Translations under genes and position numbers: made by a program
Part shown: positions 6,243-30,690 of the stretch, piece by piece
Numbering within the stretch: position 1 is the stretch's first letter
Layout of the letters: each line of letters opens with the position of its first letter
From: Mycobacterium leprae TN
GTDB taxonomy: Bacteria > Actinomycetota > Actinomycetes > Mycobacteriales > Mycobacteriaceae
DNA length: 32,000 nucleotides
Assembly: GCF_000195855.1 (NCBI RefSeq)
Contig: NC_002677.1
Span: 3,210,001-3,242,000, forward strand
Direction: 5' to 3'
Notes under the pieces: generated by a model
What the model saw: the letters and a program-made list of their open reading frames with translations, nothing else
Told to the model about the DNA's origin: nothing
Database searches by the model: none

Positions 6243-7080
6243 CATTTTCGCGATGCTACCGGTATCACAGTGACGATCGGGCAGTTGGTCAGCGTCGCTG
6301 GACGGCAGTGTATAATCGCGTTCGATAGGGCATTCGCGGTCGGAAGTCCCTGAGCGATGGACAAGCTAAATAATCAGGAGCTCATCGTCGAAATACCTCC
6401 AGCAGTGGGTATGCCGTACAGCCAATCGGCGGCTTAAACTTCGATGTGGAGTCGCGGTCGCGGGTCAATCTCGCAGAGCAAATGAAGCACCGCCCAGGTG
6501 ACTTGAGCGGCGGTCAGCAACAGCGCTGCGTTACTGCTGATCGCCGCTCACACTGGATCCGGCCTAAGATCATTGTCGACGAACCAACCGCGTACCTCGA
6601 CTTCAACCAAATGGAGGAGGTGCTACAGCTCATCCGCTCACGCACGCAGAACGAACGGAGCCAACAGTGTAGTAATGATTACGACCCATGACAATCGAAT
6701 GTTGCCGTTGGCCTACCGGGTAATCGAGCTGGTATCCGCGGTTGCGTAAACGAATCGGCCATTCGAAACAATGCATATGAAGGCCGGTGCCGTGTTGCTC
6801 AAGCAGAGCACAATAGGCAAGCGTATCTACGTGGTATCTGAAGATAGATTCGAGATTATGTGCGAATTGGCCAACGGCGGTAAGGACTTTGTCAACATGA
6901 CTGGCCCTGAATAATACTTCAGCAAAATCGGCGTACTGTTTCACTTGCCACACTCGGCTACCGTGTTCGCCTGCACCGATACGACGGCCGTCAGCTACAC
7001 GATGCCCAGCTTTCCTTGAGCGGCTCGGCGTGACACAACTGACCGATGCCATCGAGGACCATGACACTATCAGCGACTGA
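6243..7080 (+). pseudogene. ABC-transporter ATP-binding protein fused to a C-terminal cyclic-nucleotide-binding domain (Rv0073-like architecture), relic
   Basis: ABC signature and Walker B read DLSGGQQQR...PKIIVDEPTAYLD (LSGG starts at 6503). The H-loop region in another frame reads VVMITTHDNRMLPLAYRVIELV. The Walker A region is degenerate (ITVTIGQLVSVAGRQCIIAF has no GxxGxGKS). At 6790-7010 the translation is GAVLLKQSTIGKRIYVVSEDRFEIMCELANGGKDFVNMTGPE*YFSKIGVLFHLPHSATVFACTDTTAVSY, a typical cNMP-binding beta-barrel (G..l..qGd.g...Yvv..G.v.v ... G.yFGE.all...pRsATv.A.t). Hydrophobic fragments at 5990-6240 may be remains of the cognate permease. Confidence 0.65.
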
Positions 7081-7719
7081 TAACCGCATAATTCTGAAGA
7101 TAATTAAAGGACCGTTCGTTTTTGTCAAAATTTGCAATTAAAATTCTCGATTTCCATGGCGGGTAGCTGGAAAGCAATTGAACCGCGACCATTACGACGC
7201 GCTATGCCGGCCAGGCATGTACATCAAGCACTGGCAATGTCAACGAACCAATCGTGGAACCGTTGACGGGTCGTCCATTTACCGCCCTGAATCAAGCGAT
7301 CTCACTCTGCAGACGCTGGATGGCACGTTCGACAAAGTTGGGAGACGAAGGCGGCATCGGACCCGAGATGCGGTGTCCAGAAGACGTTGAAGCACTGCAC
7401 GTCGTTACGAACTATACTGGCATGGAACATCAAAAACGGGATGGATAAAGGCGACATCTAAAGCTAACGGAAGTTAACTGAAGCCTTAGGGCAAAAAAGT
7501 GCAACTAGCTGGTGATAACAATTTGGTAACTAACCTCTAATTAATAGCTGTCTCGGTGCCCTCCAGCATCGGAAACGCCGCCTTGATCAAGGTCCGTCAG
7601 ATTGACGCTTCATTGGAAATGAAAGAGGCTCTCTCTTGTGCTGACAAGCGAGCTACATTGCGACGTTTTCCTCTAGCTCAAAGATAAAAAGTTAATAGGC
7701 TCACCGCCGACATCGTGGT

Positions 7720-8907
7720 GGCGTCCGGGTGCGGTCAAATCAAATTTGACTCTCCAGGGGGCAAAGAACAAGTCGCAAAATACAATCGGCTTCTCGAAAT
7801 CGCTCCGGTAACACCAGATCGGCTGTTGTGACTGCCAGCTACTCATTGTAGCTTGCCTACGGCCGCAACATACCTGCCGTAACGATGGCCACCGCTATTC
7901 ATACTGCCACGTAACCGAAAGCAGCACCGTTTCCAGCTTTGGCAACCACTGTCGCCACACTAGGTCACCTGTTACCTGGACCGCGCCGAGCACGTCGATG
8001 GCCCGATACCACGAAGTCGATTGGAATAAGATTAGAAACTACGGCTGACTGTGTCGGCCCAGCAAGCCCCGATACCCGCTTCGGCCAAGGCGAAACCCAG
8101 TGTTATCACGAACACACTATGCGGTATACTGGCTCGTAATCCATAAGAGATTCTACAGAGACGATGTACAGGACTGTACACGGTGCGAAATACCGCGCGC
8201 AGTTTTGTTTGGTCACGGCACCCCGCCGGTTAAGCCACCATCACAACTACGTTGCGTGCGTTACCTAAAGGATCAACAAGGTTGTCGCGAGATAGACGAA
8301 CTCGAAACACCGCAGCCGGCAACATACCGACGTGCCGCAATGCTTTGAATTCCAACCGCCGTGGTGCTGATTCGGATACGGCATCAACCCGCCTACAGGC
8401 CCTCACATGCCGATTACAACGATCGCCACCACTGCGGAAGAGATCAAGAATAGTGGCCAGATACAGCGCCGGTTGGAGGCCTAAACAGGCCACCAACCCA
8501 GTGGAGCACAACAGGCACATCACCGCGCCCAGGTGGTCGTCGGCTCATTTCAAGCCCGAATGCCCGGAACGTGGGCTCATTCCAGACTCAGCGGCGCCAA
8601 CAGTGCATCGCAGACCAACGAATGCACAACGACACGCAACCCCAGCCTGGGCCACACCGTTACTGCCCTACCGATAGCTCCTGCTGCCAGCACGGCGCTC
8701 AGAGAGCTACCCGACGGTATTAGTTCCCCGCTTATTTGCAGAGGGCCACCGAACAGTTTCATTGACTCTGTCGAATACACCGAGCGCCGCTGCCAACGTG
8801 CCCGATGTTCCGGTGAAAAACGTAGGCAGCACCAGCATTATTATCTCATAGCCGGTATCTGAGAAGGAGCCCGCCACCCCACGACACCAACACTGGGAGT
8901 GAGTCAT
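7720..8907 (-). pseudogene. MFS-type transporter relic
   Basis: Minus-strand fragments read MTHSQCWCRGVAGSFSDTGYEIIMLVLPTFFTGTSGTLAAALGVFD and LDLFRSGGDRCNRHVRACRRVDAVSESAPRRLEFKALRHVGMLPAAV. The latter resembles the MFS loop2-3/TM region GxGxRxPxRDAlladxvpxxxRGxAFGfxRamDtxGAv. Further hydrophobic fragments downstream are spread over three frames with many stops. The 3' boundary is a guess. Confidence 0.4.
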
Positions 8908-10699
8908 GTCTGTTTAGATTCGTCGAATTCCTTACGAGGCGCATTGGACTCAACGCTCATGGCCTGGACATGGCAGTGGCCGAGACTCATGCACAATCGA
9001 ACCGCAACACACCCAAAAAGGACCCTAGGAATTCACTAGCTATTAACTAAATCGCTCTGTCACCGCACTTCGTCACGACACAAATCTGTCGCATTAACAG
9101 CGGATGTCGCCGTCTATGAACACCGAATAAGCAAACAGGTACCTATACGGGAGTAATGGCCGGATATGCCCGAAGCGTTCGGCCCATGTCAAACTATCTT
9201 AGCCCGGAATTATTACATGTACGCCTAGCGTAACCTAGTACGCTACTGACCGAATTGCTGTCATTCGAGAGCTGCAGGGCCATTAAGAGGACGTTTACTG
9301 CGGTTGCTCTGAATCCCCATTCTCGCTGCCGCTCACCAGCTAGCCACAAAAATCACCACCCACTCTAGGGAGGCTGGTTCGAAATACAAAAAAACCGCGT
9401 TTCGTTAATCGACGTGTATTTTACTTTATTTGATGACTGCTAAGGATTTGGTCGTGATTATATAGCACTCCATCAGGTCAGGCAGATGGGTTCAACTCCT
9501 GCTTGATGTTTGCCGCCTTAGTCGTGTTCACACAGTAACACAGTCATTCCTGCGATGCTAAGCGCGGTTATAATCGTCGACTCAGTGTGCGAAAAATTCA
9601 CTACACAGCCATAAACCGCAGTGCGAATTTGCATCGGGACTAGTCGATCCAACCGCAACTCCACAAAACATGCAGCAACGTGGAAGACGTGGTTAAATCC
9701 GACCGCGAAGCGATCATTTTCGCATATCCCAGCACAAGTGGATACCGCTAAAAACATAGCTGATTTCTGTTGCCTTCTGATCCAGCCACCCCACGGCGAG
9801 ATGCGCCTGCAGCTGTGTGCAATTCTCAACGTGACACGGTATCCCATTGGCTTAGGCACGAGCCCAGCCACTGCACAATCTTTACCACGTCATTTCTTAC
9901 ATTACTGATTCACTAGCACAAAATTATGCGCACAACAAGCCGTAAACATCCGCGCTAAAATACATAGCGCAGCCAACATGGTTTGGGTATTTTTTTCTGC
10001 TGCCCTTAGTCGCTAATACTGACTAGGATAATAATCCCGTGTCTGACCCCAGAATTATACACAAAAAATCTCATGGTAAAACGCGCCAGCAACGCCGCAA
10101 AAAATTTCAGAGAAAATTTCTACCCCAATTACTAGGATATCGAATCGACAGTCCTCGACCCAAAGATACAGCCGAATACTCTCTTTCTCCGAAGATGGTT
10201 TCAATAGCGACAGCACAACGATTTTCAATCTATCTCCGCGCACTTGACACACACATGAATAACATCAACCCTGCCACCGTAAATGTGCTAGATACACCCA
10301 AGCATTCGGTTACAAATACAATCACCTCGAATACACGTGCAACAACTAACAAACACCCCCGGTGGTATCCGTTACAATCGCTGGATATTCTATAATTCCG
10401 TGCTACAATCTGATTTATGCACGTGGCAGCTCCAGCGAACTGCCCTACCCGTAACCGACTGACCAACTGTTATAATGCCGTAACGATGGCAGCAATGGCG
10501 TGGATGTATGCAATGATGGACAACCGTCTTCCGGGTCAGACCGGCGATCCCTAAAACACAACCACGCAATGTTGGGGGGCGCCGCCGTACAGCGCTAATT
10601 CGATTAAAATGGTAGGCACTCTCGCCGACGGCGGTGAGGATCTATAAGGATTCGAGGATGGTCGCGTCAATAAAGGACCGTCAAGCCAAAGCAGGCCGC

Positions 10700-11575
10700 G
10701 GCAAGGTCCAATGACACCAGCCGGGGCCTTGGCACCGCAGTACGACAATCCAAAGCGGTTCGACCGAGGATCCGGTTACAGAGCGGAAACCGACACGGAC
10801 AAAGACATTCCGTACGGCTAGCGTGAGACTAGGTGAGCACATCGATCATAGACAGCAAAATCGGCCAGCCGGTCCAGTCAATCCACTAGGGAGAACGTGC
10901 ACGTTCCCCCGATCAATTCAACACGAACGGCGGAGATGGTCGCAGCCAGTCGCTGGTCGGCGCCGAACGCAAAGAACTGGGCGTCGGCCGACCACGCGAT
11001 GAACATTGGTTTGTCGAGCTAAGGTAGTCGGGACGCAGCCCCGGTGGGTCACCCCGTGCGCATAGAGATATAGATAACGAAAATTGACGTAGGTCTCCGA
11101 CAATCGCGGAACCGGACAGCGCCGACCACATAACCGGAATGACAGTCCTTAACAACGTCTTCGACTTGGCCGACAAAAATAACCGATTTGAGGCTACTTG
11201 AGGACCATCGGCAGAACGTGTTCGAACGCATCGCCACTCGTGATAACAAGGGCACCCAACCACTCGGAGTAGTGCGTTATGTTACGACACCGTCGGTATC
11301 GTAGCTGATCAACAAAGAAATTCTCTAGGCCAAGGGCAGCAAAAGCACCAGCTACGATGCTGGCGACGCCAGTGATGGTTCGATCAGCGACAGGGCACAG
11401 CAGGTCAGCATGTGCACCCAGCGGCCAGGTAGGGACAATGCTCCGCAGGCCGAAGTTGCTAAGCCGTTCGACTGACCTGCCGCCACAGTTCATTGCCCAT
11501 CATGTAGTCGTGCACAAACAAGACAGGCCTGTCATTCTCCGACCCGGTTGCTTCATGTATGGATAGCTCCGGCAT
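10700..11575 (-). pseudogene. alpha/beta-fold hydrolase relic, divergent from the TetR gene
   Basis: From the ATG at 11575 the translation is MPELSIHEATGSENDRPVLFVHDYMMGNELWRQV. After a frameshift it continues VERLSNFGLRSIVPTWPLGAHADLL.PVADRTITGVASIVAGAFAALGLENFFV...EWLGALVITSGDAFEHVLP. This pattern (PVLfvHG...W..v...L...g.R.iaPt.PLGaH ... lgLe.v.lVG ... TscDaFe) is typical of an alpha/beta hydrolase. The nucleophile-elbow region is scrambled and several stops follow. The 3' end is approximate. Confidence 0.5.
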
Positions 11576-11590
11576 TAATGTCGATCGTCG

Positions 11591-11632
11591 ATATAATATA
11601 TATAATATTTAGATAATATATATATATATATA
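11591..11632. repeat. AT-only low-complexity tract with dinucleotide microsatellites, (AT)4A at 11596-11604 and (AT)8A at 11616-11632
   Basis: Direct reading gives atataatatatataatatttagataatatatatatatatata. It lies in the 119-bp divergent intergenic region between the hydrolase relic (ATG at 11575, -) and the TetR gene (ATG at 11695, +). Confidence 0.9.
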
Positions 11633-11669
11633 GGTGCCTCTCCAATTCGAGATACTGTTGCAGACAGCT

Positions 11670-11688
11670 TGTTTGTAACTTACAAACA
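11670..11688. promoter_or_regulatory. candidate TetR operator: perfect 19-bp palindrome TGTTTGTAA-C-TTACAAACA
   Basis: The 9-bp arms are exactly complementary around a single central C. The palindrome ends 6 nt before the TetR ATG (11695), inside the divergent promoter region. This is the classic geometry for TetR-family auto-operators. Confidence 0.5.
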
Positions 11689-11694
11689 GATTGT

Positions 11695-12310
11695 ATGGAA
11701 AGCCAGAGGCGTACCCAGGAAGAGCGCTCCACAGCCACCCGTGATGCGCTGACTTTAGCTCGGCACAGGCTGTGGAGACTACGGGGTTACGCGGAAGTGG
11801 GCACGCCCGAGATAGCCAAAGAAGCGGACACCACCCGAGGAGCGGTCTACCACCAATTTACCGACAAGGCCGCACTATTCCGCGATGTCGTTGAGACGGT
11901 AGAGCAGGATGCGATGGCCCAAATAGCCTCCGTAGTGGCCTCGTCAGGAGCCAAAACCCCCGTGGACGCGATCCGGGCCAAGGTCGACGCATGGCTCGAG
12001 GGCCTGGCCGATCCACAGGTGCGTCAATTGATCCTGCTGTATGCACCCAGTGTGCTCGGCTGGGCGGCCTTCCGCGACGTCGCGCAACACTACAGCCTGG
12101 GCATGACCGAACAACAGTTGCTCAGCGAGGCCAGCCGGGCGAGGCAGTTGGCGCAGCCGCTGGACCACGTGCTGATCGGCAAGCTCTACGAGTCGGCCAT
12201 GGCCATACGACGCCACCACCGACTACCCGAAGCGAGCCCAGCGAGGAACCAGACAGGTGCTGCACCGACTCATCGAGAGCATGTTGCACGACCCAGCTGC
12301 GAGGCACTGA
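11695..12310 (+). pseudogene. TetR-family transcriptional regulator with a C-terminal frameshift
   Basis: The N-terminal HTH reads RRTQEERSTATRDALTLARHRLWRLRGYAEVGTPEIAKEADTTRGAVYHQFTDKAALFRDV. After ...HVLIGKLYESAMAI (about 12205) the reading frame turns into an Arg/His/Ser-rich tail. The +1 frame instead reads TTDYPKRAQRGTRQVLHRLIESMLHDPAARH* (stop at 12308-12310), which looks like the authentic TetR C-terminus. The 236-aa ORF in the track (to 12405) is therefore probably a frameshift artefact. Confidence 0.55.
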
Positions 12311-12419
12311 CCCGGCACATACGTCATCGCTCCACCAGGACTCGTAGTCACAGAGGCAAGCGTGGCGAACTGTTACCACGCGCTGCGACGAGTTCGCTCT
12401 TGTGATGAGATCGGCGGCT

Positions 12420-15404
12420 ATGAACATCAAGGTCACGCTGGAGCACCGCACTAGCTACACCTTTAACCGGCTGGTCCAGGTGTGTCCGCATGTCGTTCGG
12501 GTACACCTGGCACCACACTCACGCCCGCCTATCGAGGCCCACTCGCTGCAGATCGAGCCAGCCGGCCACTTCATCAACTGTCAGCAAGACACGCTAGGCA
12601 ACGGCTTGACCCGACTGGTCTTGCCGAATCCTATGCGCCGACGGAGCATAGGATTCGGGCTCATCACCAACCTCAAGATGATCAGCCCGTTCGACTGCTA
12701 TATCGAAAACTGGGCCGAGACGTGGCCTGCCACGGCCAGGTCAGGACCGACATTCACCTATCCCGAAGCGCTAGCCGAGGACCTCAAGCCTTACCTGCGG
12801 CCCGTCGACGAAGCAGGCAACCGATTCGTCGACAATGAGCTAGTGTGGGCATGGATTCGCAACTTCCCGGTGCCAGATGGCATCCGAACCATCAACTTCA
12901 TCAACTTCCTGGTCGCGTTCAATCAAGCGATGAACGCCGAGGTCAGCGATATCGTGTGCATGGAACACGGTGTCCCGACAACGGATTTCACGCTGCGCAC
13001 CGGCATCAGCTCGTGTCGGGACTCGGCATGGTTATTGGTATCGATTTTATGGCAGATGAGATTAACCGCCTGGGTTGTGTCCAGCTCAGCTACCTCGTAC
13101 AACTGCCCTCCGATATCGAGGCACTCAACGAGCCATCGGGGCCTGCCACCGAATTCACCTACTTGCACGCCTGGACCGAAGTGTCCATCCCCTGTACGGG
13201 CAAAATCAGGCTGGACCCGATCTCGGGGCTGTTCGCCAACGAGGTCCGCATACCGTTGGCAACCACACCACATACTGCGTCGGCAGCGCCGACCAACGGC
13301 TCAACCGACCCGTGCGAAGCGGTGCTGGACTTCCCTAACATTGTCCACCCAGGTCCAAGAAGACCCGCACATCACGCTGCCTTACTCCGACGTGGCGTGG
13401 CACGCGATCTGCGCGATAGGCCAGCACGGCTACCAACGGCTGACCGTCGGCGGGAAGCCGACAGTCGTCTTGGTGAACATCCACCCGAACAAGGGCCGCA
13501 AAGAGTGGACGATGGTCGCCAAAAGCCCGTCTAAGCGCCAGCCGGCATCCGATCTTACTGCCCGGCTGAAGGCCGCCTGGGCGCCGCAGGGGCTGATCCA
13601 TTTCAGACAGGGCCAGTGGTATACGGGAGAGCCGTTGCCGCAATGGCAGATTACACTGTATTGGCGCACCAAAGGACAGCCACTATGGACCAACGATGCA
13701 CTGCTGACTGATACCTGGAAAGCCGGTCCAAGCGAACGAAACAAGACAACCCTTGAAGATAGCGAGCTAGCCCACAAGGTGCTAGCCCAGGCAGCTGACG
13801 GTCTCGGGTTACCACTCACACAAATGCGGGCAGCATACAAGGATACGCTGCGCCGTCTAGCAGCTAAAGTGCGGATTCCGAGCGGCGCCCCAGTGCAATT
13901 AAGTGACGACCGCGGCCCCACTACCCCGGACAGCGCCGTCAACCGTGTCGCACTGCTTACGCGTCTCGAGGAATCAGTCACCTTGCCGGACGCGTATATG
14001 CTGTCGCTGCACAGCCGTGACGACAACCTCAGCTGGGTCCAAGCAACCTTGCAGCTGCACCGCGGCTGCATTGTGCTGATCGAGGACGCTTCGCTGGCAG
14101 GCTTGCTGCTGCCGCTGGATTCGATCAGCTGGCCACGACCGCATGTGTCGTTTTACCTCGATCCGATGACCTTCTGGCGCGCGTGGTCGGCGGAACCCAA
14201 CACCGCCGCAGCTGTGCTCGAGAACCCCGACTCCGCACCGCCTACCGCGATGGTGGCCGAAATTCGCGGTGAGTTTCTGTCTATTTTCCTATCGCCTACC
14301 GAAACGCTCAAACACTTCGTCAGTCTAGTCTCCGGAGGCGAGACCGCTGCCGCGAACATTGGCTGCCCAGTCGTGATCGAGGGTTACGGGCTGCCGACGG
14401 ACCTGCGGCTGAAGTCGATGTGCGTCAAGCCAGGGCAAGTCGCGGCCGCTGCCAGCTTTGCTGCAGAACGCCAGCAGTTGGAAACCTTTTATGCACAGGC
14501 AGGAATGGCTCGGTTGTCGACGGAGTCGTTTGACGACAGCGGCGCACACGGCAGAACCGGCGGCAATAACCACATCACACTCGGCGACGTCACACCGCTA
14601 CGGCGTCACCCCGATCTGTTGGTCTCGCTGCTGACCTGCTGGCAACGACACCCTTCGCGATCCTACCGGTTTGCGGGGCAATTCGTTGGCCCCATATCGC
14701 AGGCACCGCAAGTTGACGAGGTGCGCGCGTTTCGGCACCTGGTTGTCGATATCACCGGTAACATCCACCACGCCGAGTTTTGCATCGACAAGCTTCACAG
14801 CCACGATAACACCCACGGCAGGCTCAGTCTGTTAGAGTTACGTGGCTTTGCGATGCCGCTGTACCTGCAAATGGTGATAGTGCGTTGGCTGCTGGTTCGC
14901 TCGCTGGTGGCGTGGTTTTGGGAGGAACCGCTGCGCGCCTCAGTGATACGCCACGGCACCAATCTGCACGGCCGATACCTGTTTCCCCACTTCGTTAGCC
15001 ATGATATGGCTGCCATAGCAACCAGCCTGCGTGAACACGGCCTCGCTTTCGAGACCAACTGGCTGTACCCGTTCATCGAATTCCGCTTACCGCGCCTCGG
15101 CACTTCTGTCTTCCACGGTGTGGAGATCGAGTTACGGAACGCGATCGAACCGTGGACTACGTTCGGCGAGAAGTCCACCGTAACCTCGCGCGGTGGCTGC
15201 ACTTATCACGCCAGCCACACCGGGTCAAAAGCAATCAACACTGGCAGCACCCTCGAAGCCCAGGCACGCTGGAGCCGTCGCTTTGAAGCCACCGGTTTCA
15301 TCCCAAGCAAAATTACTATGTCCTGCATCCGGAAAAGCAAGTCAGTATCTCCACCGACATCGACGCGCCTAGCATCCTCAACCTCAGACGCGTCCGCACC
15401 GTGA
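12420..15404 (+). pseudogene. large transglutaminase-family protein (Bact_transglu_N + transglutaminase core + DUF2126-type C-terminal region; Rv2566-like), frameshifted
   Basis: The N-terminus is MNIKVTLEHRTSYTFNRLVQVCPHVVRVHLAPHSRPPIEAHSLQIEPAGHFINCQQDTLGN. The catalytic-Cys motif GISSCRDSAWLLVSIL is in the main frame. The rest of the core, YLVQLPSDIEALNEPSGPATEFTYLHAWTEVSIPCTGKIRLDPISGLFANEVRIPLATTPHTASAAP, is readable only in another frame (about 13090-13350). The main frame resumes at QVQEDPHITLPYSDVAWHAICAIG. Downstream DUF2126-like motifs are GRTGGNNHITLG, RHPDLLVSLLTCWQRHPSRSYRFAGQFVGPISQAPQVDE, ITGNIHHAEFCIDKL, and LLELRGFAMP. It is about 145 codons shorter than the roughly 1140-aa Mtb protein as I remember it. 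Confidence 0.75.
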
Positions 15405-18082
15405 TACGGTATATGGTATCCACAGAAATGGCACTGAGCAACAGTGCATCGTCCTCGGCGCGTTTCAATCACTCTGACGCCGACCGACTGCTAGACGGGT
15501 ACCGCGCCGCCCGCGCCCAGAAAGTTCTGTTCGACCTACACTCTGCCGGCACGGCCGGCCCGGGAATCGGCTACGATGAATTCGTCGACGACTCTGGCTA
15601 CGTGCGACCTAGCTGGACCGAGTTGGCGGATGCGATCGGCGGCCGAGGTCGGGCCGGACTGCATCAATTGCGTTCGGTGATGCACCGACTAATCTACAAC
15701 GATGGCATTACCTACACCGGGATCGACCCAGGAGCGCTCACCAATGACCACGGTGTGGTGCCGGGGCTCTGGCGGCTAGACTCGTTGCCGCTGTTGGTCT
15801 CTGCGACCGATTGGGAGGTATTAGAAGCCGGGCTGATTCAGCGCTCACGCCTACTCGATGCCGTACTCACAGACCTGTACGGGCCACGCCGCTTGCTAAC
15901 CGACGGCGTGCTGCCGCCAGAACTGCTGTTCGGCCACCCTGGCTACGTGCGTACCGACCACGGCATCGAGGTTCCTGGGCATCACCAGCTCTTCATGCAC
16001 GGCTGTGACCTCAGCCGGTTGCCAGACGGCGGGTTCCAGATCAACGCCGACTGGACGCAAGCGCCCTCGGGGGCCGGATATGCGCTGGCGGACCGACGTG
16101 TGGTCGCACAAGCACTTCCTGACCTCTACGAAACGATCGGGCCGCGACCGACTACACCGTTTGCTCAAGCACTGCGGTTGGCACTGATAGACGCAGCACC
16201 CGAGGTCGCTCAGGACCCAGTAGTTGTAGTGCTGAGCCCGGGAATTTACTCAGAAACCGCCTTCGATCAAGCGTATCTCGCAACTTTGCTGGGTTTCCAA
16301 CTGGTAGAAAGCTCGGATTTAGTGGTGTGCGACGGCAAGGTGTGGATGCGTTCCTTGGGCACACTTAAACGCGTCGACGTGGTACTGCGCCGCGTCGACG
16401 CGGACTATATGGACCCCCTGGATCTTCGTGCCGATTCGCTGTTAGGCGTGGCCGGTTTGGTGGAGGCACAACATCGCGGAACGGTGACCGTTGTTAACAC
16501 ACTAGGCAGCGGCATTCTAGAAAGCGCAGGGCTACTGCGGTTCTTGCCCCAACTCTCCGAGCGTTTACTCGGAGAAACCCTATTGCTGCCCAGCGCACCC
16601 GTCTACTGGGCAGGAATCGACAGCGAACGCTTGCACCTGCTGACGAATTTGTCGTCGCTATTAATCAAATCCACCGTAGGCGGAAAAACCATTGTAGGAC
16701 CATCACTTTCGTCCGGACAACTGACTGAAATGGCTGCTCGAATCGCAGCTAAGCCGTGGCAGTGGGTAGGCCAAGAACTGCCGCAATTCTCAACTGCACC
16801 CACAGATCATGATGGCGTGTTGTCACCGGCTAGCATCGGTATGCGAGTGTTCACGGTTGCCCAACGCAGCGGCTATGCACCGATGATCGGCGGTCTAGGG
16901 TATGCCCTGGCATCTGGAATTGATGCCTACTCTCTGAAAAAAGTTGCAGCAAAAGATATTTGGGTTCTTCCAACGGAGCGCGCACGCACCGAGGCGATAA
17001 CCCATTCATTATTGGAGTCGCCGCCAATGACGGGAACAGGCACCTTGGGGGTGAGCTCGCCGCGGGTACTGTCCGACCTGTTTTGGATGGGGCGCTATGG
17101 TGAGCGCGCCGAAAACATGGCACGGTTGCTCATTGTCACCCGCGAGCACTACCACGATTCCCGGCACCGCCAGAACACGGAAGAAAACGCGTGCTTGCCG
17201 GTGCTGATAGCGGCGCTTGGTAAGATCACCGGGACCGACACCGGATCCGGTGGTCAGGCTGACGTGATAGCCGTTGCGCCCTCGACATTGTGGTCGCTCA
17301 CTACCGACCGTAATCTGCCAGGGTCTCTGGTGCAGTCGGTGGACGGGCTAGTATTGGCAGCAAGAGCGGTGCGCGCCCAATTGTCCCGCGACACCTGGAT
17401 GGTGCTCAGTGAAGTAGAGCGCGCTATGGTGCACGAGACCGAGCCGCCGGAGTCGTTGGTCGAGGGCGACGCCCTGCTGGCGTCGGTGCAAGCACGGACA
17501 CTTGCTGGCATGCTGACACTGTCCGGATTAGCCGGTGAATCGATGGTGCGTGATATCGGCTGGACCATAATGGACATCGGAAAGCGCATCGAACGCGGGC
17601 TGGCGTTGACCGCCTTACTGCATGCCACGCTTACCGACGTCCGTAGCCCCGCGGCTGAGCACAGCATCATCGAGTCAATCCTGGTAATTTGTGAGTCATC
17701 GGTCATCTACCAGCGCCGCACGGTAAGCACGATCGATGTTGCCGTTGTCGCTGAGCTCATGCTGTTCGACGCGACGAACCCGCGGTCACTGGTGTATCAA
17801 CTGGATCGGTTACGCGTCGATCTCGCTGACCTTCCGGGCTCGTCGAGGTCATCACTCCCGGAGCGGATGGTGGCCGAGATGAGCACCCGGCTGCGCCGGT
17901 CCGCTCCCGCTCAGCTGAAAGAGGTCAGTGCCGACGGGCGCCGCTATGTGCTGGCTGAGCTACTCGCCGCGGTCGACACCGCGTTGCGTGACTTGGCCGA
18001 CGCGATCACCGCAACCCAATTGGCGGTGCCCTGCGGCATGCAACCACTATGGGGGCCTGACAATCGACAAACCATGTCGTAA
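15401..18082 (+). CDS. circularly permuted ATP-grasp (type 2) + alpha-E domain fusion protein (Rv2567-like), apparently intact
   Basis: Uninterrupted 893-aa ORF. ATP-grasp-like motifs include GITYTGIDPG...WRLDSLPLLVSATDWEVLEAGLIQRSRLLDAVLTDLYG, VVVVLSPGIYSETAFDQAYLATLLGFQLVESSDLVV.DGKVWMRSLGTLKRVDVVLRRVDADYMDPLDLRADSLLGVAGLVEA, and KDIWVL. The alpha-E start is VLSDLFWMGRYGERAENMARLL. The GTG start overlaps the upstream stop (GTGA at 15401-15404). In-frame ATGs at 15413 and 15428 are alternative starts. Confidence 0.85.
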   Translation: MIRYMVSTEMALSNSASSSARFNHSDADRLLDGYRAARAQKVLFDLHSAGTAGPGIGYDEFVDDSGYVRPSWTELADAIGGRGRAGLHQLRSVMHRLIYNDGITYTGIDPGALTNDHGVVPGLWRLDSLPLLVSATDWEVLEAGLIQRSRLLDAVLTDLYGPRRLLTDGVLPPELLFGHPGYVRTDHGIEVPGHHQLFMHGCDLSRLPDGGFQINADWTQAPSGAGYALADRRVVAQALPDLYETIGPRPTTPFAQALRLALIDAAPEVAQDPVVVVLSPGIYSETAFDQAYLATLLGFQLVESSDLVVCDGKVWMRSLGTLKRVDVVLRRVDADYMDPLDLRADSLLGVAGLVEAQHRGTVTVVNTLGSGILESAGLLRFLPQLSERLLGETLLLPSAPVYWAGIDSERLHLLTNLSSLLIKSTVGGKTIVGPSLSSGQLTEMAARIAAKPWQWVGQELPQFSTAPTDHDGVLSPASIGMRVFTVAQRSGYAPMIGGLGYALASGIDAYSLKKVAAKDIWVLPTERARTEAITHSLLESPPMTGTGTLGVSSPRVLSDLFWMGRYGERAENMARLLIVTREHYHDSRHRQNTEENACLPVLIAALGKITGTDTGSGGQADVIAVAPSTLWSLTTDRNLPGSLVQSVDGLVLAARAVRAQLSRDTWMVLSEVERAMVHETEPPESLVEGDALLASVQARTLAGMLTLSGLAGESMVRDIGWTIMDIGKRIERGLALTALLHATLTDVRSPAAEHSIIESILVICESSVIYQRRTVSTIDVAVVAELMLFDATNPRSLVYQLDRLRVDLADLPGSSRSSLPERMVAEMSTRLRRSAPAQLKEVSADGRRYVLAELLAAVDTALRDLADAITATQLAVPCGMQPLWGPDNRQTMS

Positions 18083-18089
18083 CCAGCAT

Positions 18090-18410
18090 GCTCAACCAAA
18101 AGCTTTGGCCGCTAAGCAATCTCATCCCCTAGCTAAGAAGGGAGGCACCTGGTTAACCACAGCATTGGTCCTGGCCGGCAGCGACCCCGCGTACAGTTGC
18201 AAAACCCCTCGCTGTGTGTGAGCTCCGGCCTGGACTCATCCAACAACGCGTTGCCAACATCAGTGAGTTGGATCGAGCAGCGGGACCGATCGATGAGATT
18301 CTTTTCAGGTGGCGTTCCAGCTTTCGAATCTGCTGGCTCAGCGGTGGTTGGGTGGTGTGGAGTCGCCCGGCGACCGCGGTTACGGAGTAACGCAACTCTG
18401 GATCTTTCAT
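18090..18410 (-). pseudogene. LysR-family regulator, N-terminal HTH fragment only (frameshifted and truncated)
   Basis: From the ATG at 18410 the translation is MKDPELRYSVTAVAGRLHTTQPPLSQQIRKLERHL, which fits the LysR HTH pattern (LRYFvavAeelhft.AA.rLh.sQPaLS.qIr.LE..LG). It continues in another frame as IQLTDVGNALLDESRPEL (the LT.aG..ll..ar.il pattern). The effector-binding domain is absent because the relic runs into the 3' end of the 893-aa gene. Confidence 0.5.
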
Positions 18411-18556
18411 AGAAAGGATATAATAAAGTGTACAGATATGTCTTAGACAGTGATGGTGTGGCAAAATTAATTTTCACAACGAGGCTAGATCTACTGAGAA
18501 AGGCATCCAGTAACCGCTACGACCACTAAAGAGCTCGATCTCGTCAAAGTATTACT

Positions 18557-19350
18557 GTGACCAATAGCGATGACTTGTCGGTGGTGCTAACTACGTCGGA
18601 GCACGTCGCTGCGGCCTTGGAGATATTTGGCCGGAGACCCAAAAGAACTAGTGGCGCGCATTTCACCACGATGGGCAACCGGACGGGTGAGTTGCTGGCC
18701 GTCAACATGGTACTTGCAATTTGCAAGCCCGAATATGTACCGGTATTGTGGAGGTCCGTTCTTGTACTTACCGATGCTCGGTTCAATTGTAACACCATTA
18801 AGGCTACCACTCATGTCGTCGCACATCTAGTTGTGGTCAATGGCGCCGTAGTCCGCTGGATTGGGATGAACGCTGGCGGCAACGTGGTTGGTTCGGGTAA
18901 TTGTTCCAGCGCCACCATCGGCCGCGCGCTTCGACTGATCTTGCTCATCGTAGGCGGAGGCATTCCGACTAAATTTGACAAGAGCACCCTCGACACACAT
19001 TCTACAGCTCCGAGAACGAAGAGATTAACCCGCGGACGCCGTATCGCGTCGAACATCGACGTACAGCACCCGGCGGTGATAGATGCCGAGGCACCGCAGA
19101 GCGTGAGCAAAGTACATTTCGGATGACTCCCAAGGAATATTGCGTTTCATTGTCTCGGCACCGAGCATCATCGCGTCCTTCGGTTGGTCCCACGACGAAG
19201 TTCGTAGCTACCTGTGGCTCAACGGCACCAGCGAATGGGACGACGTCAGTTACGACAATCGTTATGTCCTTCTCGAAGGACGCACCTATAATCACAATAT
19301 TACGAAGATGATGTACGACGCAAGTTTAGCAGACAAGTGTCAATCGTCTT
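18557..19350 (+). pseudogene. conserved-hypothetical gene relic, divergent from the LysR fragment; family not recognised
   Basis: The 189-aa ORF has a protein-like stretch: ELLAVNMVLAICKPEYVPVLWRSVLVLTDARFNCNTIKATTHVVAHLVVVNGAVVRWIGMNAGGNVVGSGNCSSATIGRALRLILLIVGGGIPTKFDKSTL. A plausible continuation lies in a different frame (19140-19330: APSIIASFGWSHDEVRSYLWL). The frame switching implies decay. I cannot name the family. Confidence 0.3.
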
Positions 19351-20313
19351 TATTCCTTACGATATACATCTGTTCGCGGTTAACAGAGCCGCTGGTCGAT
19401 ACTCGGCGTTCCTGCCGAGGTGGATGTATCGCGACCACACCGGTACTGCGCGCCATTAAAGATAACCAAAAAAATTGTTACCAGCAGCGTGGTAATCCAC
19501 GAACTTACCTGCTTTAACGGCACCTGCCAGTTCTAATATCCACCCATGAAATAGAGTGACAGATGACAGATGTTATCTAGCACCTCTGCGGCGTAATCGA
19601 GATAGCAACCACCTCTGCGACGTCCTGCTCCTACAGCACCAGGGGTCTATGCCTTGGGAGTACTGAAACATCAAGCGGAATGTACTCTCCTTCTTCCGAC
19701 GGCTGTTTGTTGTGTATTGTCCCGCTCGAGCGGGCTTCTATCTGCACCGCACTTCTTATGCACACCGCAGATTTGACGCGTATAATCCACTGAATACACC
19801 TGTTGTCAGCATACGATGTTGCAACTCATTTTTCGTAGAAGTGTCGTAGTCATTGGATCGAATGATCAACTATAGATATAGAATTCTGAATATGCGAGAT
19901 CGATAACCTTTGATTATCGGTAATAATCTTGCATCTGCATGACTTTAGTCAAGAGTGGGATTATAGTTATTTTCGCTATACGTAAAGAAGAGTGCACTGG
20001 GCGGCAATAATCTGTTACGCGGTGCGTTGCATAACTTTGCGGAAGGTTGTAGCGGTCTATCGGTTCCTCTCTTCGACTGAGAGCTCGTCTGTCTTGAAAT
20101 TTAAATTATAGTGACTGTAAGGTTTAAAACACGCCCTTGAGGAAACCGGTTGAATAGGTTCTGTTAGCTCGGCACGGCGTTGTGATACTCTTCGTTAACC
20201 ATGATCCATCCTAATATGTCAATAATACTATTTATCTTATCTAGACTAATTAGGTTGCCAACAGATCACTGCACTTTTGTCAATCTTCGCGGCACCTCGA
20301 CAACTGATGTCCA

Positions 20314-22128
20314 TTACCTTGCCATGTTGGTGAATCGCGACAAGTGCAATTGATGCGCGACAGTGACTGTCTTGGTTGGGCCGTTACGATGCTTGGCGAG
20401 AATCAAGTCCGCCTCGCCACCACGCGGATCGTCGCGATCAAAGGCATCCGGACGGTGCAGCAAGATCACGACGTCGGCATCCTGCTCTAGGCTTCCCGAC
20501 TCCCGCAAATCAGACAACATCGGCTTCTTGTCGGTGCGCTGCTCGGGACTACGGTTCAGCTGGCTGATCGCCACTACCGGGAGCTCAAGTTCTTTGGCTA
20601 ACAATTTAAGATGGCGGGAGAACTCCGAGACTTCCACCTGTCGCGACTCGAACCGCTTGCCTGACGTCATCAACTGCAGGTAATCGACCACAACTAGCTT
20701 CAGGTTTGTCTTTTGCCGCAGCCGGCGCGCCTTGGCACGGATCTCCATCATGGTCAGGTTCGGTGAATCGTCGATATACAGTGGCGCCTCACTGATTTCG
20801 CTCATCCGCCGCGCCAGCCGTGTCCAGTCATCGTCGGTCATTCGACCCGAACGCATATCGGCGAGCTTGATTTTCGCCTCTGCCGAAAGCAACCGCATCA
20901 CGATCTCGGACTTACTCATCTCCAGAGAGAAGATAACGCTCGCCAGGCGATGCTTGATCGAACACGACCGCATGAAGTCCAGCCCAAGGGTCGAGTTGTG
21001 CGTTGGCACCATCCCTCGACCAGCCAGATACAGATGAGCAGCATTGTCCACCTCGACACACCGCACCGGAACGCTGCGCACCCGCCGCACTGAGTCGATG
21101 CACAGCACCGGAGCCATGAATGCAGCCGTGGTCAGTCGCCCAGCGTGGCGCGGTGTCGACCCGGCCGCAGCAATAATGTCCAGCCCACAACGCAACTGAG
21201 CCGACGTCCGGATACCGTAACTCGTCGGCCATTGGTGCTGGGCGTCTGCGACAATGACGGTACCGTCGGAGAACTCGATCTCGTAGCACGGCCGGCCCAG
21301 CATGACCTCGGTCGCGGCCACCACGCGCGTCGGTGCTTCGTCAACGGCCAGCAACTCGTCACCGACGGCAACATCACCCATCGCCGTCCAACCAGTCGGT
21401 GTGGGCAGCGGCGTGTCCAGCGCGAGCGCCTTGCCCACACCCGGACGAGCCGCCACGATGATCATCTGTCCCGGATGCAAACCGTTGGTTACCTCATCGA
21501 GTTCGGTGAAGCCAGTCGGCGCGCCACGCGAGATACCCCCATTGGAAGCGATGGCATCGAGGTCATCCATCGTCGGCTGCAGTAGATCTTCGAGCGGTAC
21601 GTAGTTCTCAGAAAGCCGGCACTCGGCTACGTCGTAGATTTCTGCCTGCGCGCGGTCGACCACCTCGGCCACGTCGGCACCCTCAGCGCCGGCGTAACCG
21701 TACTGCACCACCCGTGTGCCGGCCTCCACCAGTCGACGCAGCAGCGCCTTTTCAGCGACGATGCCCGCATAGTAACCTGCATTGGCGGCAGTCGGCACCG
21801 TCGAGATCAGAGTGTGCAGATACGGCGCACCACCGATCCTGCGCAACAATCCGCGGCGGTCCAATTCGGCGGCCACCGTCACCGCATCGGCCGGCTCTCC
21901 TCGCCCGTACAGATCTAGGATCGCATCGTAAACATTCTGGTGTGCTGGACGATAAAAGTCACCAGAACGCAGCCGCTCGAGAACGTCAGCAATGGCATCC
22001 TTACTCAGCAGCATCCCGCCCAACACCGACTGCTCCGCGGCTAGGTCCTGCGGTGGCTGACGGCCAAAATCTTCACTGGGTGGAACTGCATCCATACCTG
22101 AGTGCGCCAGATCATCGACGACCGCCAT
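20314..22128 (-). CDS. dnaB: replicative DNA helicase DnaB, interrupted in the P-loop by an in-frame mini-intein
   Basis: I place the start at the ATG at 22128 (MAVVDDLAHSGMD...), with GGGGGAGG upstream. The 40 extra codons of the track ORF look spurious. The N-terminal domain reads QPPQDLAAEQSVLGGMLLSKDAIADVLE. Walker A is split as IIVAARPGVGK / intein / STLGLDF. Walker B is LKLVVVDYLQLM. The C-terminus reads EADLILAKHRNGPTKTVTVAHQLHLSRFTNMAR. Confidence 0.95.
   Translation of the reverse strand: MAVVDDLAHSGMDAVPPSEDFGRQPPQDLAAEQSVLGGMLLSKDAIADVLERLRSGDFYRPAHQNVYDAILDLYGRGEPADAVTVAAELDRRGLLRRIGGAPYLHTLISTVPTAANAGYYAGIVAEKALLRRLVEAGTRVVQYGYAGAEGADVAEVVDRAQAEIYDVAECRLSENYVPLEDLLQPTMDDLDAIASNGGISRGAPTGFTELDEVTNGLHPGQMIIVAARPGVGKALALDTPLPTPTGWTAMGDVAVGDELLAVDEAPTRVVAATEVMLGRPCYEIEFSDGTVIVADAQHQWPTSYGIRTSAQLRCGLDIIAAAGSTPRHAGRLTTAAFMAPVLCIDSVRRVRSVPVRCVEVDNAAHLYLAGRGMVPTHNSTLGLDFMRSCSIKHRLASVIFSLEMSKSEIVMRLLSAEAKIKLADMRSGRMTDDDWTRLARRMSEISEAPLYIDDSPNLTMMEIRAKARRLRQKTNLKLVVVDYLQLMTSGKRFESRQVEVSEFSRHLKLLAKELELPVVAISQLNRSPEQRTDKKPMLSDLRESGSLEQDADVVILLHRPDAFDRDDPRGGEADLILAKHRNGPTKTVTVAHQLHLSRFTNMAR
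20995..21429 (-). other. DnaB mini-intein, 145 aa, no homing-endonuclease domain; Ala1 with a Trp/Cys/Thr (class-3-like) signature
   Basis: The extein junctions restore GVGK|ST (Walker A GxxxxGKS/T). The intein begins ALALDTPLPTPTGW (GCG codon at 21429-21427) and ends GMVPTHN (AAC at 20997-20995), followed by Ser+1. Block B reads VIVADAQHQW, block F reads VRCVEVDNAAHLYLAG, and block G reads VPTHN. Confidence 0.85.
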
Positions 22129-22677
22129 TAACTCTAAACACCTCCCCCTGACACAAACACCCTGACATAAGCATTCGAACGGGCATTCGATATGCCAATG
22201 TTCGGAGCATAAGTCAAGGCCCCAACACCCGCGCCCCAAAGCACCCAACCACGTCGCGCCGGGATGACGGTAGACGTTGCTGGCGAGTACTCCAAGTGGC
22301 TACTGTTCATGAAGCTGTGCATCGTGTGTGTATACCCGTCGACACTGTGTGAAACGGGGTGTGGAGAACCTATGGATCAGTCTGGAGCGCTATCACATCA
22401 CTGCAGATAAACGTCCCATAAGACGACAGATATTGTGTGAACAAGAATCTCTTCGGCGTGTCGAGCCAGGTTACTGCACCGGGCGTGTTGGATTTCAGCT
22501 AGATTTTGGAAGCGTTACGTATTGGTAACGATAAATGGCTCCTTAGTTGCCGAAAATAGTTCGCCAGGGAAACACGCAGTGTTCCCCAGCACCACTCTTA
22601 GAAGACTTTCTACGCACGAACAAAACCCGGTGGCAGCCGATCAGCGGCCGTCACCGGAGTTAACAAACGTTGCGTTT

Positions 22678-23136
22678 TTATCTCGCTGCGACGACGTCGA
22701 GTAACACCACGACATCAACTTCAGGGTGTAAATGCACCGATACCGGATGCGTGCCGACGGCCTTGATATGGGTTTTGGGTAGCCGCACGATTCGCTTGTC
22801 GAGGTTTGGCCCGCCCGCCTTCTTTATAGCGGCGACAACATCACCGGCAGTCACGGAGCCGAACAGCTTGCCGGAGTCAGCTACCGTCTTCATCGGCAGC
22901 GAAACCGAGCCCAACGCCTCGATCGCCACCTTGATTTCGTTGGCGTGCTCGCGGTCACGCATCGCCTTCGTTTCACGTGCGCGGCGGATCTCGTCAGCCT
23001 GTCGCTGGGCACCGCGCGAAGCGACAATCGCCAGACCGTGTGGGAGCAAAAAGTTTCGACCGTACCCGTCCTTGACCTCAACAGTGTCACCGACGGAACC
23101 AAGATGGTCGACATCAGCCGTCAGAATCAGCTTCAT
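22678..23136 (-). CDS. rplI: 50S ribosomal protein L9
   Basis: 152-aa ORF beginning [52 protein letters not shown] lies upstream of the ATG. It is the last gene of the rpsF-ssb-rpsR-rplI cluster. Confidence 0.95.
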
Positions 23137-23183
23137 CGTTTTCGTACTTTCCGTTGGGCTTGCAGCGGTTACCGTCCGTCCGG

Positions 23184-23438
23184 TTATCGCGCCGAGGAGG
23201 TAAAGGGCAGCAGAGCCACCTCGCGGGCGTTCTTCACCGCGATCGCGATGTCGCGCTGGTGTTGCACGCAGTTACCAGTGACCCGACGGGCCCGGATCTT
23301 GCCCCGCTCACTGATGTACGTCCGCAGTAGCGTGGTGTCCTTGTAGTCGATTTGCTGGTTCTTCTTGGCGCAGAAAACGCATTTACGCGCTTTGGCCGGC
23401 TTCTCCGGTGCTGGACGCCGCTTGGTGGACTTGGCCAT
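23184..23438 (-). CDS. rpsR: 30S ribosomal protein S18
   Basis: I place the start at the ATG at 23438 ([79 protein letters not shown]), giving 84 aa. The longer 116-aa track ORF overlaps the ssb 3' end and is not needed. Confidence 0.95.
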
Positions 23439-23463
23439 GTGTGTAATTCTTTCCGTTTCGTTA

Positions 23464-23970
23464 CTAGAAGGGGGGTTCTTCGTCACCGACGCCGAAGGAC
23501 CCCGAGGTTGGGGCACTGCCCCACGGATCGTCACCTACTCCGCCACTCATTTGAGCAGGCGCCTGACGGGATCCGCTGCCGAAGCCGCCGCCCCCGCCAC
23601 CACTGCGGCTAGCCTTGTTGACTTTGGCGGTGGCATACCGAAGCGACGGGCCGATCTCATCGACCTCGACCTCGACAACTGTCCGTTTCTCGCCCTCGCG
23701 GGTCTCGAAGGAACGCTGCTTGAGCCGACCGGTGACGATCACCCGCGCCCCCCGGGTGAGGCTTTCGGCCACGTTCTCCGCAGCCTCCCGCCAAATATTG
23801 CACCGAAGGAACAGCGCCTCGCCGTCTTTCCACTCACCGCTTTGACGATCATAGATCCGCGGTGTCGATGCAACAGTGAAGTTCACCACGGCAGCACCGG
23901 ACGAAGTGAACCGCAACTCAGGGTCAGCGGTCAAATTTCCGACAATGGTAATGGTGGTGTCGCCAGCCAC
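23464..23970 (-). CDS. ssb: single-stranded DNA-binding protein
   Basis: 168 aa from a GTG start with GGGAGG upstream. The OB-fold N-terminus reads [61 protein letters not shown] Gly-rich linker precedes an acidic tail ending DEEPPF. Confidence 0.95.
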
Positions 23971-24129
23971 AATTTCCTCCCTAATTTGGCCCTGTTCCTC
24001 GCCTTGGTGCAGGCGTTGGTCATGAGCGTGTTTTCGGAGAACCTATGCAAGGGCGCAAACCGCGGACGATCGTTCGACTAGTGCTATATGCCTGGTCGCC
24101 CCCGCTACGCGGGCCGCATCGTCGCCAGA

Positions 24130-24420
24130 CTAGTGCTTGTCAGTGCGCATTACCTTGGTGCGCAACACCGACTCGTTGAGGCTGAGCTGGCGGTCAAGCT
24201 CGGATACCGTTGCCGGCGCAGCCTTCAGATCAATGACAACGTAGATGCCTTCAGCGTGCTTGGAGATCTCGTAGGCCAGCCGGCGCCGACCCCAGATGTC
24301 GACCTTATCGATAGCTCCACCGTCCTTGCGGACGACGTTGAGGAACGTCTCCAAAGACGGACCGACAGTGCACTCGTCGAGCGTGGGGTCAAGAATGACC
24401 ATGATTTCGTATGGACGCAT
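24130..24420 (-). CDS. rpsF: 30S ribosomal protein S6
   Basis: I place the start at the ATG at 24420 ([16 protein letters not shown]...), giving 96 aa. GGAGG and GGTGAGG motifs lie upstream. The 12 extra codons in the track ORF are probably not translated. Confidence 0.95.
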
Positions 24421-24433
24421 GGAAACCTCACCA

Positions 24434-24476
24434 CCTCCTCTGGTCTGTGCGGCCACGGTCGATCCGCAGCAGGAGG
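24434..24476 (-). promoter_or_regulatory. candidate rpsF 5' leader hairpin that pairs a GGAGG motif
   Basis: The minus-strand RNA reads CCUCCU-GC-UGCGG-AUCGACCGUGG-CCGCA-CAGACCAG-AGGAGG. It has a 6-bp basal stem (CCUCCU/AGGAGG), a 5-bp upper stem (UGCGG/CCGCA) and an asymmetric internal loop, and ends 13 nt before the rpsF AUG. A second purine-rich motif (GGUGAGG) lies closer to the AUG, so SD sequestration is uncertain. Confidence 0.3.
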
Positions 24477-24479
24477 GTC

Positions 24480-24900
24480 GCCTGCGTCAGCAACTGCACC
24501 AGGCTACCGGACGTCGGGCTTACCGGAAAAATCCGGGCCACTAGCCAATCGGTCACAGTTCCAGCTGCGTCGGTATTCGTCGACCCTGGCCTTTCTGTTG
24601 CCACGTCAGCCTTAGCCAGCGTGCCAGAGTCGAATAGCGGCGGGTCGTATTCGACAAACAGCATTGAGCTGCCTACGCAGCTGGTCAATCGACAAGGAAC
24701 TCAACCTGCTAACTAAGGCCATGTCGATGCCATTGGAGGACCCCCGCGGCGGGGGTGATAATCCGCTGCGAGAGTGCTGAACAACACTTTCGGGCACATA
24801 GTGTGCACCCAAATTTGTTGAGCAGGTCCGCAACGCTCCGGTGCGTCATCGTGGATCAGCTGAAGGGCTCCAACACCGTCAGGGAACACCACCTACATCG
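24480..24900 (-). pseudogene. possible relic of the gene that lies between Rv0051 and rpsF in M. tuberculosis (Rv0052 position)
   Basis: Two overlapping minus-strand ORF fragments in different frames have protein-like composition: ...SLSIDQLRRQLNAV... and ...FVEYDPPLFDSGTLAKADVATERPGSTNTDAAGTVTDWLVARIFPVSPTSGSLVQLL.... The call rests on position and frame-switching only. I do not remember the Rv0052 sequence. Confidence 0.25.
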
Positions 24901-24967
24901 GATGCACCGACTTTGTCGAAGTATAGCATCGCAGGTGAGACCGAGCATCTCGTTTTCTGTGCACACC

Positions 24968-30688: not shown

Positions 30689-30690
30689 CG

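Follow-up and report, generated by a model that had tools for sequence, protein, structure and literature searches.

Two adjoining genes of Mycobacterium leprae TN, ML2678 and ML2679, lie in a 32,000-nucleotide stretch of contig NC_002677.1 (positions 3,210,001–3,242,000 of the forward strand; referred to here as the window, in whose numbering all coordinates are given) and form a module of the type known from Rv2566 and Rv2567 of M. tuberculosis. The first gene encodes a transglutaminase/DUF2126 protein and the second a circularly permuted (CP) ATP-grasp/alpha-E protein. The pattern of substitutions shows ML2679 to behave as a working gene kept by purifying selection, and ML2678 to be dead as an enzyme, with an amino-acid sequence that drifts as freely as those of the neighbouring pseudogenes. 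Unlike a classical pseudogene, ML2678 is also shown by its alignment with intact orthologues to be protected from stops and uncompensated frameshifts while its substitutions look neutral. We propose that ML2678 and ML2679, together with the upstream TetR-family open reading frame (ORF) ML2677, are the remnant of a TetR-controlled Rv2566/Rv2567-type module, in which ML2679 is live and ML2678 is dead but kept open for ribosome transit; to this reading as a whole we give an even chance.

The ML2678–ML2679 module

ML2678 corresponds to the ORF at 12420..15404 on the + strand (994 codons, or 1000 if counted from GTG 12402), and ML2679 to that at 15401..18082 on the same strand (893 codons from GTG 15401, 889 residues from the homologous ATG 15413). 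Several orthologues carry a stop just past the upstream GTG/ATG, and the true start of ML2678 is therefore taken to be ATG 12420. Exact database matches identify the two products as CAC32210.1 and CAC32211.1, respectively, and several M. leprae genomes deposit both as hypothetical coding sequences (CDS).

Matched over their full length in ML2679 are the Pfam profiles CP_ATPgrasp_1/2 (PF04174/PF14403; 425–427 bits, profile positions 1–332 of 332 and 1–371 of 374, above the curated cut-off), and the C-terminal part is an Alpha-E domain (PF04168; 217 bits, profile positions 3–292 of 294). In ML2678, Pfam recognises a Bact_transglu_N domain (51 bits, residues 12–82) and a DUF2126 domain split into four pieces, with no match to Transglut_core, whereas the M. 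haemophilum orthologue has one. An NCBIfam search matched neither protein. The domain content and the exact matches bear out the first-pass annotation, which had recognised a transglutaminase/DUF2126 and CP-ATP-grasp/alpha-E pair from the ORFs, and the literature agrees, describing the Rv2566 family as a papain-fold domain with a GCS2-like ligase (PMC2588565). The only solved relative of ML2679, PDB 3n6x (‘putative glutathionylspermidine synthase’), aligns to residues 60–519 (numbered from ATG 15413; E 2e-62) but differs in being a stand-alone ATP-grasp protein without the alpha-E fusion, and no reported function was found for it. Rv2567 itself does not make γ-aminobutyric acid (GABA)-trehalose (preprint 10.64898/2026.04.15.718621).

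Rv2566–Rv2567 and the other mycobacterial orthologues share with the M. leprae pair the gene order, the domain content and the adjoining or overlapping stop and start, and the pair is adjoining and intact in essentially all of the 80 mycobacterial loci retrieved. Closest among the relatives with an intact module is M. haemophilum, in which the order is TetR, a 1133-residue transglutaminase/DUF2126 protein, an 891-residue ATP-grasp/alpha-E protein, PPE, PE and LysR; this locus is collinear with window positions 6483–18372. By gene order, the module already stood at this locus in the ancestor that M. leprae shares with M. haemophilum, and M. leprae lost the PPE/PE pair later.

Constraint on ML2679

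Branch-specific ratios of nonsynonymous to synonymous change (pN/pS), which were obtained throughout by parsimony counting and not from a likelihood model, are 0.245 for the whole of ML2679 on the M. leprae branch (88 nonsynonymous and 132 synonymous changes) and 0.069 on the M. haemophilum branch. The circularly permuted ATP-grasp domain (residues 130–500; 15788..16900, +) has ratios of 0.13 and 0.061 on the two branches, respectively, the alpha-E domain (residues 554–872; 17060..18016, +) 0.34 and 0.068, and the N-terminus 0.34 and 0.076. Functional neighbours in the window are, like ML2679, relaxed 2- to 4-fold relative to M. haemophilum; the M. leprae and M. haemophilum ratios are 0.231 and 0.102 for ponA, 0.203 and 0.120 for GT87, 0.151 and 0.000 for PadR, and 0.079 and 0.019 for dnaB.

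Columns that do not vary among 78 mycobacteria and that have the identical residue in PDB 3n6x number 81, and ML2679 differs at none of them; drift at the rate seen in ML2678 would have changed about 21. Its three indels are each in frame, the alpha-E motifs GRYGERAE (residue 564) and KRIERG (residue 728) are intact, and the protein has the hallmarks of the Rv2567 type, namely a CP-ATP-grasp domain, an alpha-E domain with the ER motif and the deep core residues. The intactness first claimed for the 893-codon gene is upheld by the overall ratio and the unchanged core, and a young pseudogene is unlikely on these counts. Partner-facing parts of ML2679 may be relaxed, the alpha-E and N-terminal regions being the candidate partner-contact regions.

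Lesions and drift in ML2678

Lesions in ML2678 were called against the intact M. haemophilum gene and 65 other orthologues; all coordinates below are on the + strand. The gene contains an out-of-frame segment of about 88 codons (13081..13344), bounded by a 5-nt tandem duplication (CAGCT-CAGCT, at about 13081) and an additional nucleotide at about 13344, which compensates for the duplication and restores the frame. The catalytic Cys codon of the transglutaminase (CRD motif; 13014..13016) is still in frame, and the triad His (13166–13168) and Asp (13214–13216) codons survive in the ancestral frame only, inside the shifted segment, leaving Cys, His and Asp without a common frame.

In-frame losses of 21, 18, 12, 105, 243 and 6 nt, all between 13435 and 15239, have removed about 140 residues. 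The DUF2126 lesion region (14419..15327) comprises deletions of 18 nt at about 14419–14438 (removing PGVIEVN, invariant at 7 of 7 positions), 12 nt at 14594, 105 nt at 14720–14723 (about 35 conserved-core residues), 243 nt at 15174 (an 81-residue segment with 41 invariant positions) and 6 nt at 15223–15239, together with the terminal loss of 1 nt at about 15327, by which the last 25 or so codons are shifted. With conserved segments of 7, about 35 and 81 residues deleted, no continuous DUF2126 (GCS2-like amidoligase) domain is left. Compared with Rv2566, ML2678 has thus lost the transglutaminase His and Asp to the frameshift and some 140 residues to deletions, and it does not align with its orthologues in one frame; the description of this gene as frameshifted and shortened was correct.

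The protein sequence that remains drifts like that of a pseudogene. Of 461 columns invariant in 65 orthologues, 122 (26.5%) are changed in ML2678 and 3 in M. haemophilum, so that invariant residues have changed as frequently as the overall nonsynonymous rate (26.5%). The changes are evenly spread, the longest unchanged run being 16 columns against 17 expected, and this rules out a protected sub-domain surviving in the protein. Every segment has a pN/pS of 0.64 on the M. leprae branch (0.16 on the M. haemophilum branch), and for the out-of-frame segment, translated in the ancestral frame, the value is 0.59. The pairwise ratio of nonsynonymous to synonymous rates (dN/dS) against M. haemophilum is 0.46, and that of the flanking pseudogenes 0.39–0.47. 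By these measures purifying selection on the ML2678 protein was not found, and its amino-acid evolution is neutral, as in a classical pseudogene.

Several further features of ML2678 were observed. Two of its insertions are perfect tandem duplications, at 12890–12908 (CATCAACTT twice) and at 13082–13091 (CAGCT twice); they point to replication slippage, and their perfect repeats suggest that they are fairly recent. Substitutions on the M. leprae branch of the gene (12420–15404) are strand-asymmetric, with 164 G>A against 95 C>T on the + strand. The G>A excess agrees with the + strand serving as lagging strand close to the origin, and the window has a negative cumulative GC skew.

Independent M. 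leprae read-set assemblies (L082, L083, L096 and L097) all break within ML2678 at 14093–14228: the contigs on the upstream side stop at 14122 or 14228, and those on the downstream side begin at 14199. One contig, L082, crosses the break with a variant of 14138–14195 that has eight mismatches and a 1-nt insertion, and that carries M. leprae-lineage changes yet retains ancestral bases at some positions. Such a variant suggests that the genome has another copy of this part of ML2678, about 94% identical, at a different place, or that the sample was mixed. A repeat within the window as the cause of the break near 14199 was ruled out, as none was found in the window.

An uninterrupted frame in ML2678

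Across about 990 codons (983–988 in the counts) ML2678 is free of stops, and its frame stays open from 12345 to 15402; read in the two alternative frames, this DNA contains 37 and 22 stops. When the 454 lineage-specific substitutions of the gene were placed at random with the mutation spectrum kept, a mean of 15 stops was expected, and the probability of observing none was 2e-4 with 60% of the substitutions random and 0.019 with 25%. The flanking pseudogenes have 9 stops in 556 codons, along with many frameshifting indels; at their stop density, ML2678 would be open with a probability of about 1e-7.

Alignment gaps number 16 in 983 codons of ML2678, compared with 35 in 556 codons of the flanking pseudogenes. 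Apart from the terminal −1, those in ML2678 are multiples of three or occur in compensating pairs or clusters, and the terminal −1, the sole uncompensated frameshift, leads to a frame that ends beside the start of ML2679. With no stops, and with nearly all indels frame-preserving, frame-breaking mutations have been purged from this gene. The proposed decay of the upstream partner therefore holds at the protein level but not for the frame, which is uninterrupted, annotated as a CDS and kept open. To our knowledge no 3-kb frame preserved without protein-level constraint has been described, and literature searches gave none.

The junction and the upstream region

The overlap of the two genes in M. 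haemophilum reads TAATG, which represents the ancestral junction; M. leprae has TATATG. A 1-nt insertion in M. leprae removed the old TAATG stop, and the −1 near 15327 shifts ML2678 into the frame ending at TGA 15402–15404, 8 nt before ATG 15413, the homologous start of ML2679. In the rebuilt junction (GTGATACGGTATATG; 15401..15415, +) the two mutations again leave a stop beside a start. The GTGA overlap that had been read as the signature of a formerly coupled operon is present at 15401–15404, but by this comparison it is a by-product of the insertion and the −1, and not an old coupling signal. Inspection of the junction sequences by eye found no Shine–Dalgarno sequence for ML2679 in either M. 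leprae or M. haemophilum. The mRNA of ML2678 is rich in C (962, against 817 G).

Upstream of the three ORFs, the only promoter-like pair of hexamers on the + strand lies in an AT-rich (AT)n tract (11588..11633, +; called from the consensus match alone), 60 nt upstream of the TetR ORF; a scan of the + strand from 11.7 to 15.4 kb found no promoter-like site. The (AT)n microsatellite at 11591–11633 may be one of the variable AT repeats used in strain typing. ML2677 (11695..12405, +; 236 codons) has TetR_N and TetR_C_41 domains, is annotated as a TetR regulator and is degraded. It is 79% identical to the M. haemophilum TetR protein over 175 residues, after which the frame changes: because of a frameshift near 12208 the final 37 or so residues are replaced, and the new stop, TGA 12403–12405, stands 15 nt before the start of ML2678. 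Its pairwise dN/dS is 0.29. A degraded TetR-family ORF whose new stop lies this close to ML2678 would agree with a transcript of all three ORFs that is derepressed and translated serially.

Explanations for the open frame

We infer that the target of selection in ML2678 is ribosome transit and not the protein. This is proposed because ML2679 has no Shine–Dalgarno sequence of its own and starts beside the upstream stop, because no promoter-like site was found at 11.7–15.4 kb, and because the mRNA is C-rich. A premature stop in ML2678 would uncouple the translation of ML2679 and would leave as much as 3 kb of C-rich mRNA open to Rho-dependent termination or to decay, silencing ML2679; selection on ML2679 would thus purge stops and frameshifts from ML2678. 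ML2678 would then be a ‘translated spacer’, a 3-kb frame kept only so that ribosomes reach the ML2679 start, its protein drifting freely, a description that we hold tentatively and at somewhat less than an even chance.

Several observations weigh against this account. A G run in ML2678 (14920–14922, +) is polymorphic, and its GGGG allele (Glu841fs) would end translation at 14996–14998, about 415 nt before ML2679. The allele is present in 4 of about 20 M. leprae read-set contigs examined (37 index blocks versus 143 for ML2679), and Glu841fs has been reported in a clinical strain of type 3I (PMC11597610). The 3I strain Br-014-03 carries GGGG, whereas TN and Thai-53 carry GGG. Either the open frame over the last 140 or so codons of ML2678 is dispensable, or the allele is young and mildly harmful. 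Fusion of ML2678 to ML2679 by the GGGG allele is ruled out, as the shifted frame stops at 14996. If ribosome transit is indeed selected, this allele constitutes a natural experiment on it.

A protein search with ML2679 gave no intact orthologue in M. lepromatosis or M. uberis, both of which are in the database, and the next match after M. leprae itself (100%) was M. haemophilum (85%); the gene is thus probably dispensable for the leprosy-bacillus lifestyle. A genome scan found, M. leprae aside, only mycobacterial loci at 78% identity or less, and an M. lepromatosis-like contig (L090), reached via DnaB, is collinear with the window over 19683–24961 only. Also unfavourable are the 18 ML2679 residues that are invariant in 78 orthologues and changed here, 13 of which lie past residue 540, including the radical alpha-E changes R771Q, G816R, R819L and R890Q. 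Expression data are of mixed import: in the 2009 array study, which lists ML2678 as the Rv2566 orthologue, the ML2678 transcript was detected in vivo and ML2679 was not among the detected transcripts. No proteomic evidence for ML2679 was found, and neither gene appears in the supplements to the RNA-seq paper on M. leprae or to the genome paper on M. lepromatosis.

A different account concerns what ML2679 does, and is compatible with the ribosome-transit reading in this respect. ML2679 may be functional only through paralogous partners, the small transglutaminase-like ML0607 together with ML0605 and ML0606, which make up the Rv2409c–Rv2411c module. The first-pass annotation had raised use of a paralogous partner, and this is plausible: ML0607 is listed as the Rv2409c orthologue and as a non-pseudogene with a detected transcript. 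A transglutaminase-like protein is moreover predicted to reverse the tags of an ATP-grasp ligase, and the relaxation of ML2679 is concentrated in the alpha-E domain and the N-terminus, as expected if partner contacts have changed. This reading offers no reason for the open frame of ML2678, however; no cross-talk between the two modules is known, and the DUF2126 amidoligase activity is without a known paralogue here. We regard dependence on these partners as unlikely.

Ordinary selection would account for the frame if the product of ML2678, though not catalytic, were still of use, for instance as a scaffold for ML2679 or as its regulator. The open frame itself, the nearly always frame-preserving indels with the +5 compensated by the +1, the still recognisable Bact_transglu_N domain and most of DUF2126, and the detected transcript all agree with such a role, and inactive transglutaminase-like domains have been proposed as peptide binders elsewhere (PMC3495828). 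A protein under selection is nevertheless hard to reconcile with invariant residues that have changed at the overall nonsynonymous rate, evenly and with no protected stretch, with a pN/pS in the in-frame segments that is the same as in the out-of-frame segment when the latter is translated in the ancestral frame, or with a pairwise dN/dS equal to that of the flanking pseudogenes. The 7, about 35 and 81 conserved-core residues deleted, and a truncating allele that circulates in natural strains, also speak against it, and we consider a retained scaffold improbable.

That both genes are on their way out, ML2679 being a young pseudogene not yet struck and the ML2678 frame open by luck, would suit the failure to see an intact M. 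lepromatosis or M. uberis orthologue in the protein search, a constraint on ML2679 3.6 times weaker than in M. haemophilum (0.245 versus 0.069), the 18 changed invariant residues, mostly in alpha-E, and the absence of ML2679 from the 2009 transcript list, but is very improbable, because ponA, GT87 and dnaB are equally relaxed (2- to 4-fold), because none of the 81 deep-core residues of ML2679 has changed against 26.5% under drift in ML2678, because the neutral phase that would explain the excess pN/pS, about 16% of the branch by a rough calculation, predicts about three stops and two to three frameshifts in 889 codons where none is seen, and because ML2678 would have stayed open by chance with a probability of 2e-4 (60% random) or about 1e-7 (flanking stop density). 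Very recent loss, an option put forward at first pass, is likewise disfavoured.

Comparison with predicted tagging systems and operon polarity

In the peptide-tagging prediction of Iyer, Aravind and co-workers (Mol Biosyst 2009), as outlined in PMC3495828, the ATP-grasp protein is the writer of tags and the transglutaminase-like peptidase an eraser that reverses them. Set against the predicted ATP-grasp/alpha-E/transglutaminase-like tagging systems, whose biochemistry is itself a prediction, M. leprae keeps the conserved ligase with its alpha-E domain, while the transglutaminase-like eraser and the GCS2-like ligase encoded in cis are inactivated. An active transglutaminase-like peptidase encoded with the ligase is thus missing from this locus. 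On the published prediction, M. leprae would keep a peptide or amide ‘writer’ without the cis-encoded ‘eraser’ and second ligase, and ML2679 would act alone or with the paralogous ML0605–ML0607 module. That an ATP-grasp/alpha-E protein is worth keeping without its fused transglutaminase–amidoligase neighbour argues for a writer function of its own.

The arrangement resembles cases of operon polarity and translational coupling in that a dispensable gene stands upstream of a needed one, damage to the former being expected to hurt the latter. Unlike in the usual case, ML2678 has decayed anyway, and only by mutations that let ribosomes keep moving. A bias of M. leprae pseudogenes towards the 3′ ends of operons has been described (Muro et al., PMC3061063). 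If the ribosome-transit reading is true, operon polarity would be a measurable force in reductive evolution, shaping the order and manner of gene decay; some annotated M. leprae CDS would be protein-level pseudogenes surviving as expression devices, and counts of ‘functional’ genes in reduced genomes would be inflated by such frames. ML2678 offers a clean case of a gene neutral in sequence and constrained in frame, and its entry, listed as a 1000-residue conserved hypothetical protein, ought to carry a note that the gene makes no working enzyme.

Neighbouring genes

No third, small transglutaminase gene follows the pair, as had been noted: none is present in the window, and M. haemophilum has PPE–PE–LysR at this place instead, making the absence ancestral to the clade. 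The same applies to the convergent Peptidase_Mx (Rv2568c-like) gene, which lies downstream in 71 of 81 loci and is missing from the M. haemophilum/M. leprae clade, so that its absence in M. leprae is likewise ancestral. Adjoining ML2679 is the LysR relic that the first-pass annotation had seen (18171..18410, −), which covers residues 1–92 of the 313-residue M. haemophilum LysR at 43% identity. The gene-poor surroundings extend over about 8 kb upstream of the pair and some 2 kb on its downstream side, and not over the 17 kb or so of pseudogenes given there. An Rfam search of the whole window returned nothing.

Further along the window, the DJ-1/PfpI and DUF1707 genes, intact in M. haemophilum (L092, 6920–7561 and 1255–2154, respectively), are missing or decayed beyond recognition in M. 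leprae (about 24850–25000 and 29300–30700), amid the functional genes ponA, GT87 and rpsF. Between LysR and dnaB, at 18557–19126, gene finders predict a 189-codon ORF in all M. leprae contigs examined. It matches no Pfam family and does not resemble the genes that M. haemophilum has in the same interval. In M. haemophilum this interval holds about 10 kb of genes (methyltransferase, MFS, GntR, PemK, thioredoxin-like, PPE/PE, CoA-transferase and cyclase). Only about 2 kb are left of it in M. leprae (18083–20313), and the M. lepromatosis-like contig (L090, 4705–14704) keeps relics of those genes, which points to a deletion specific to the M. leprae lineage.

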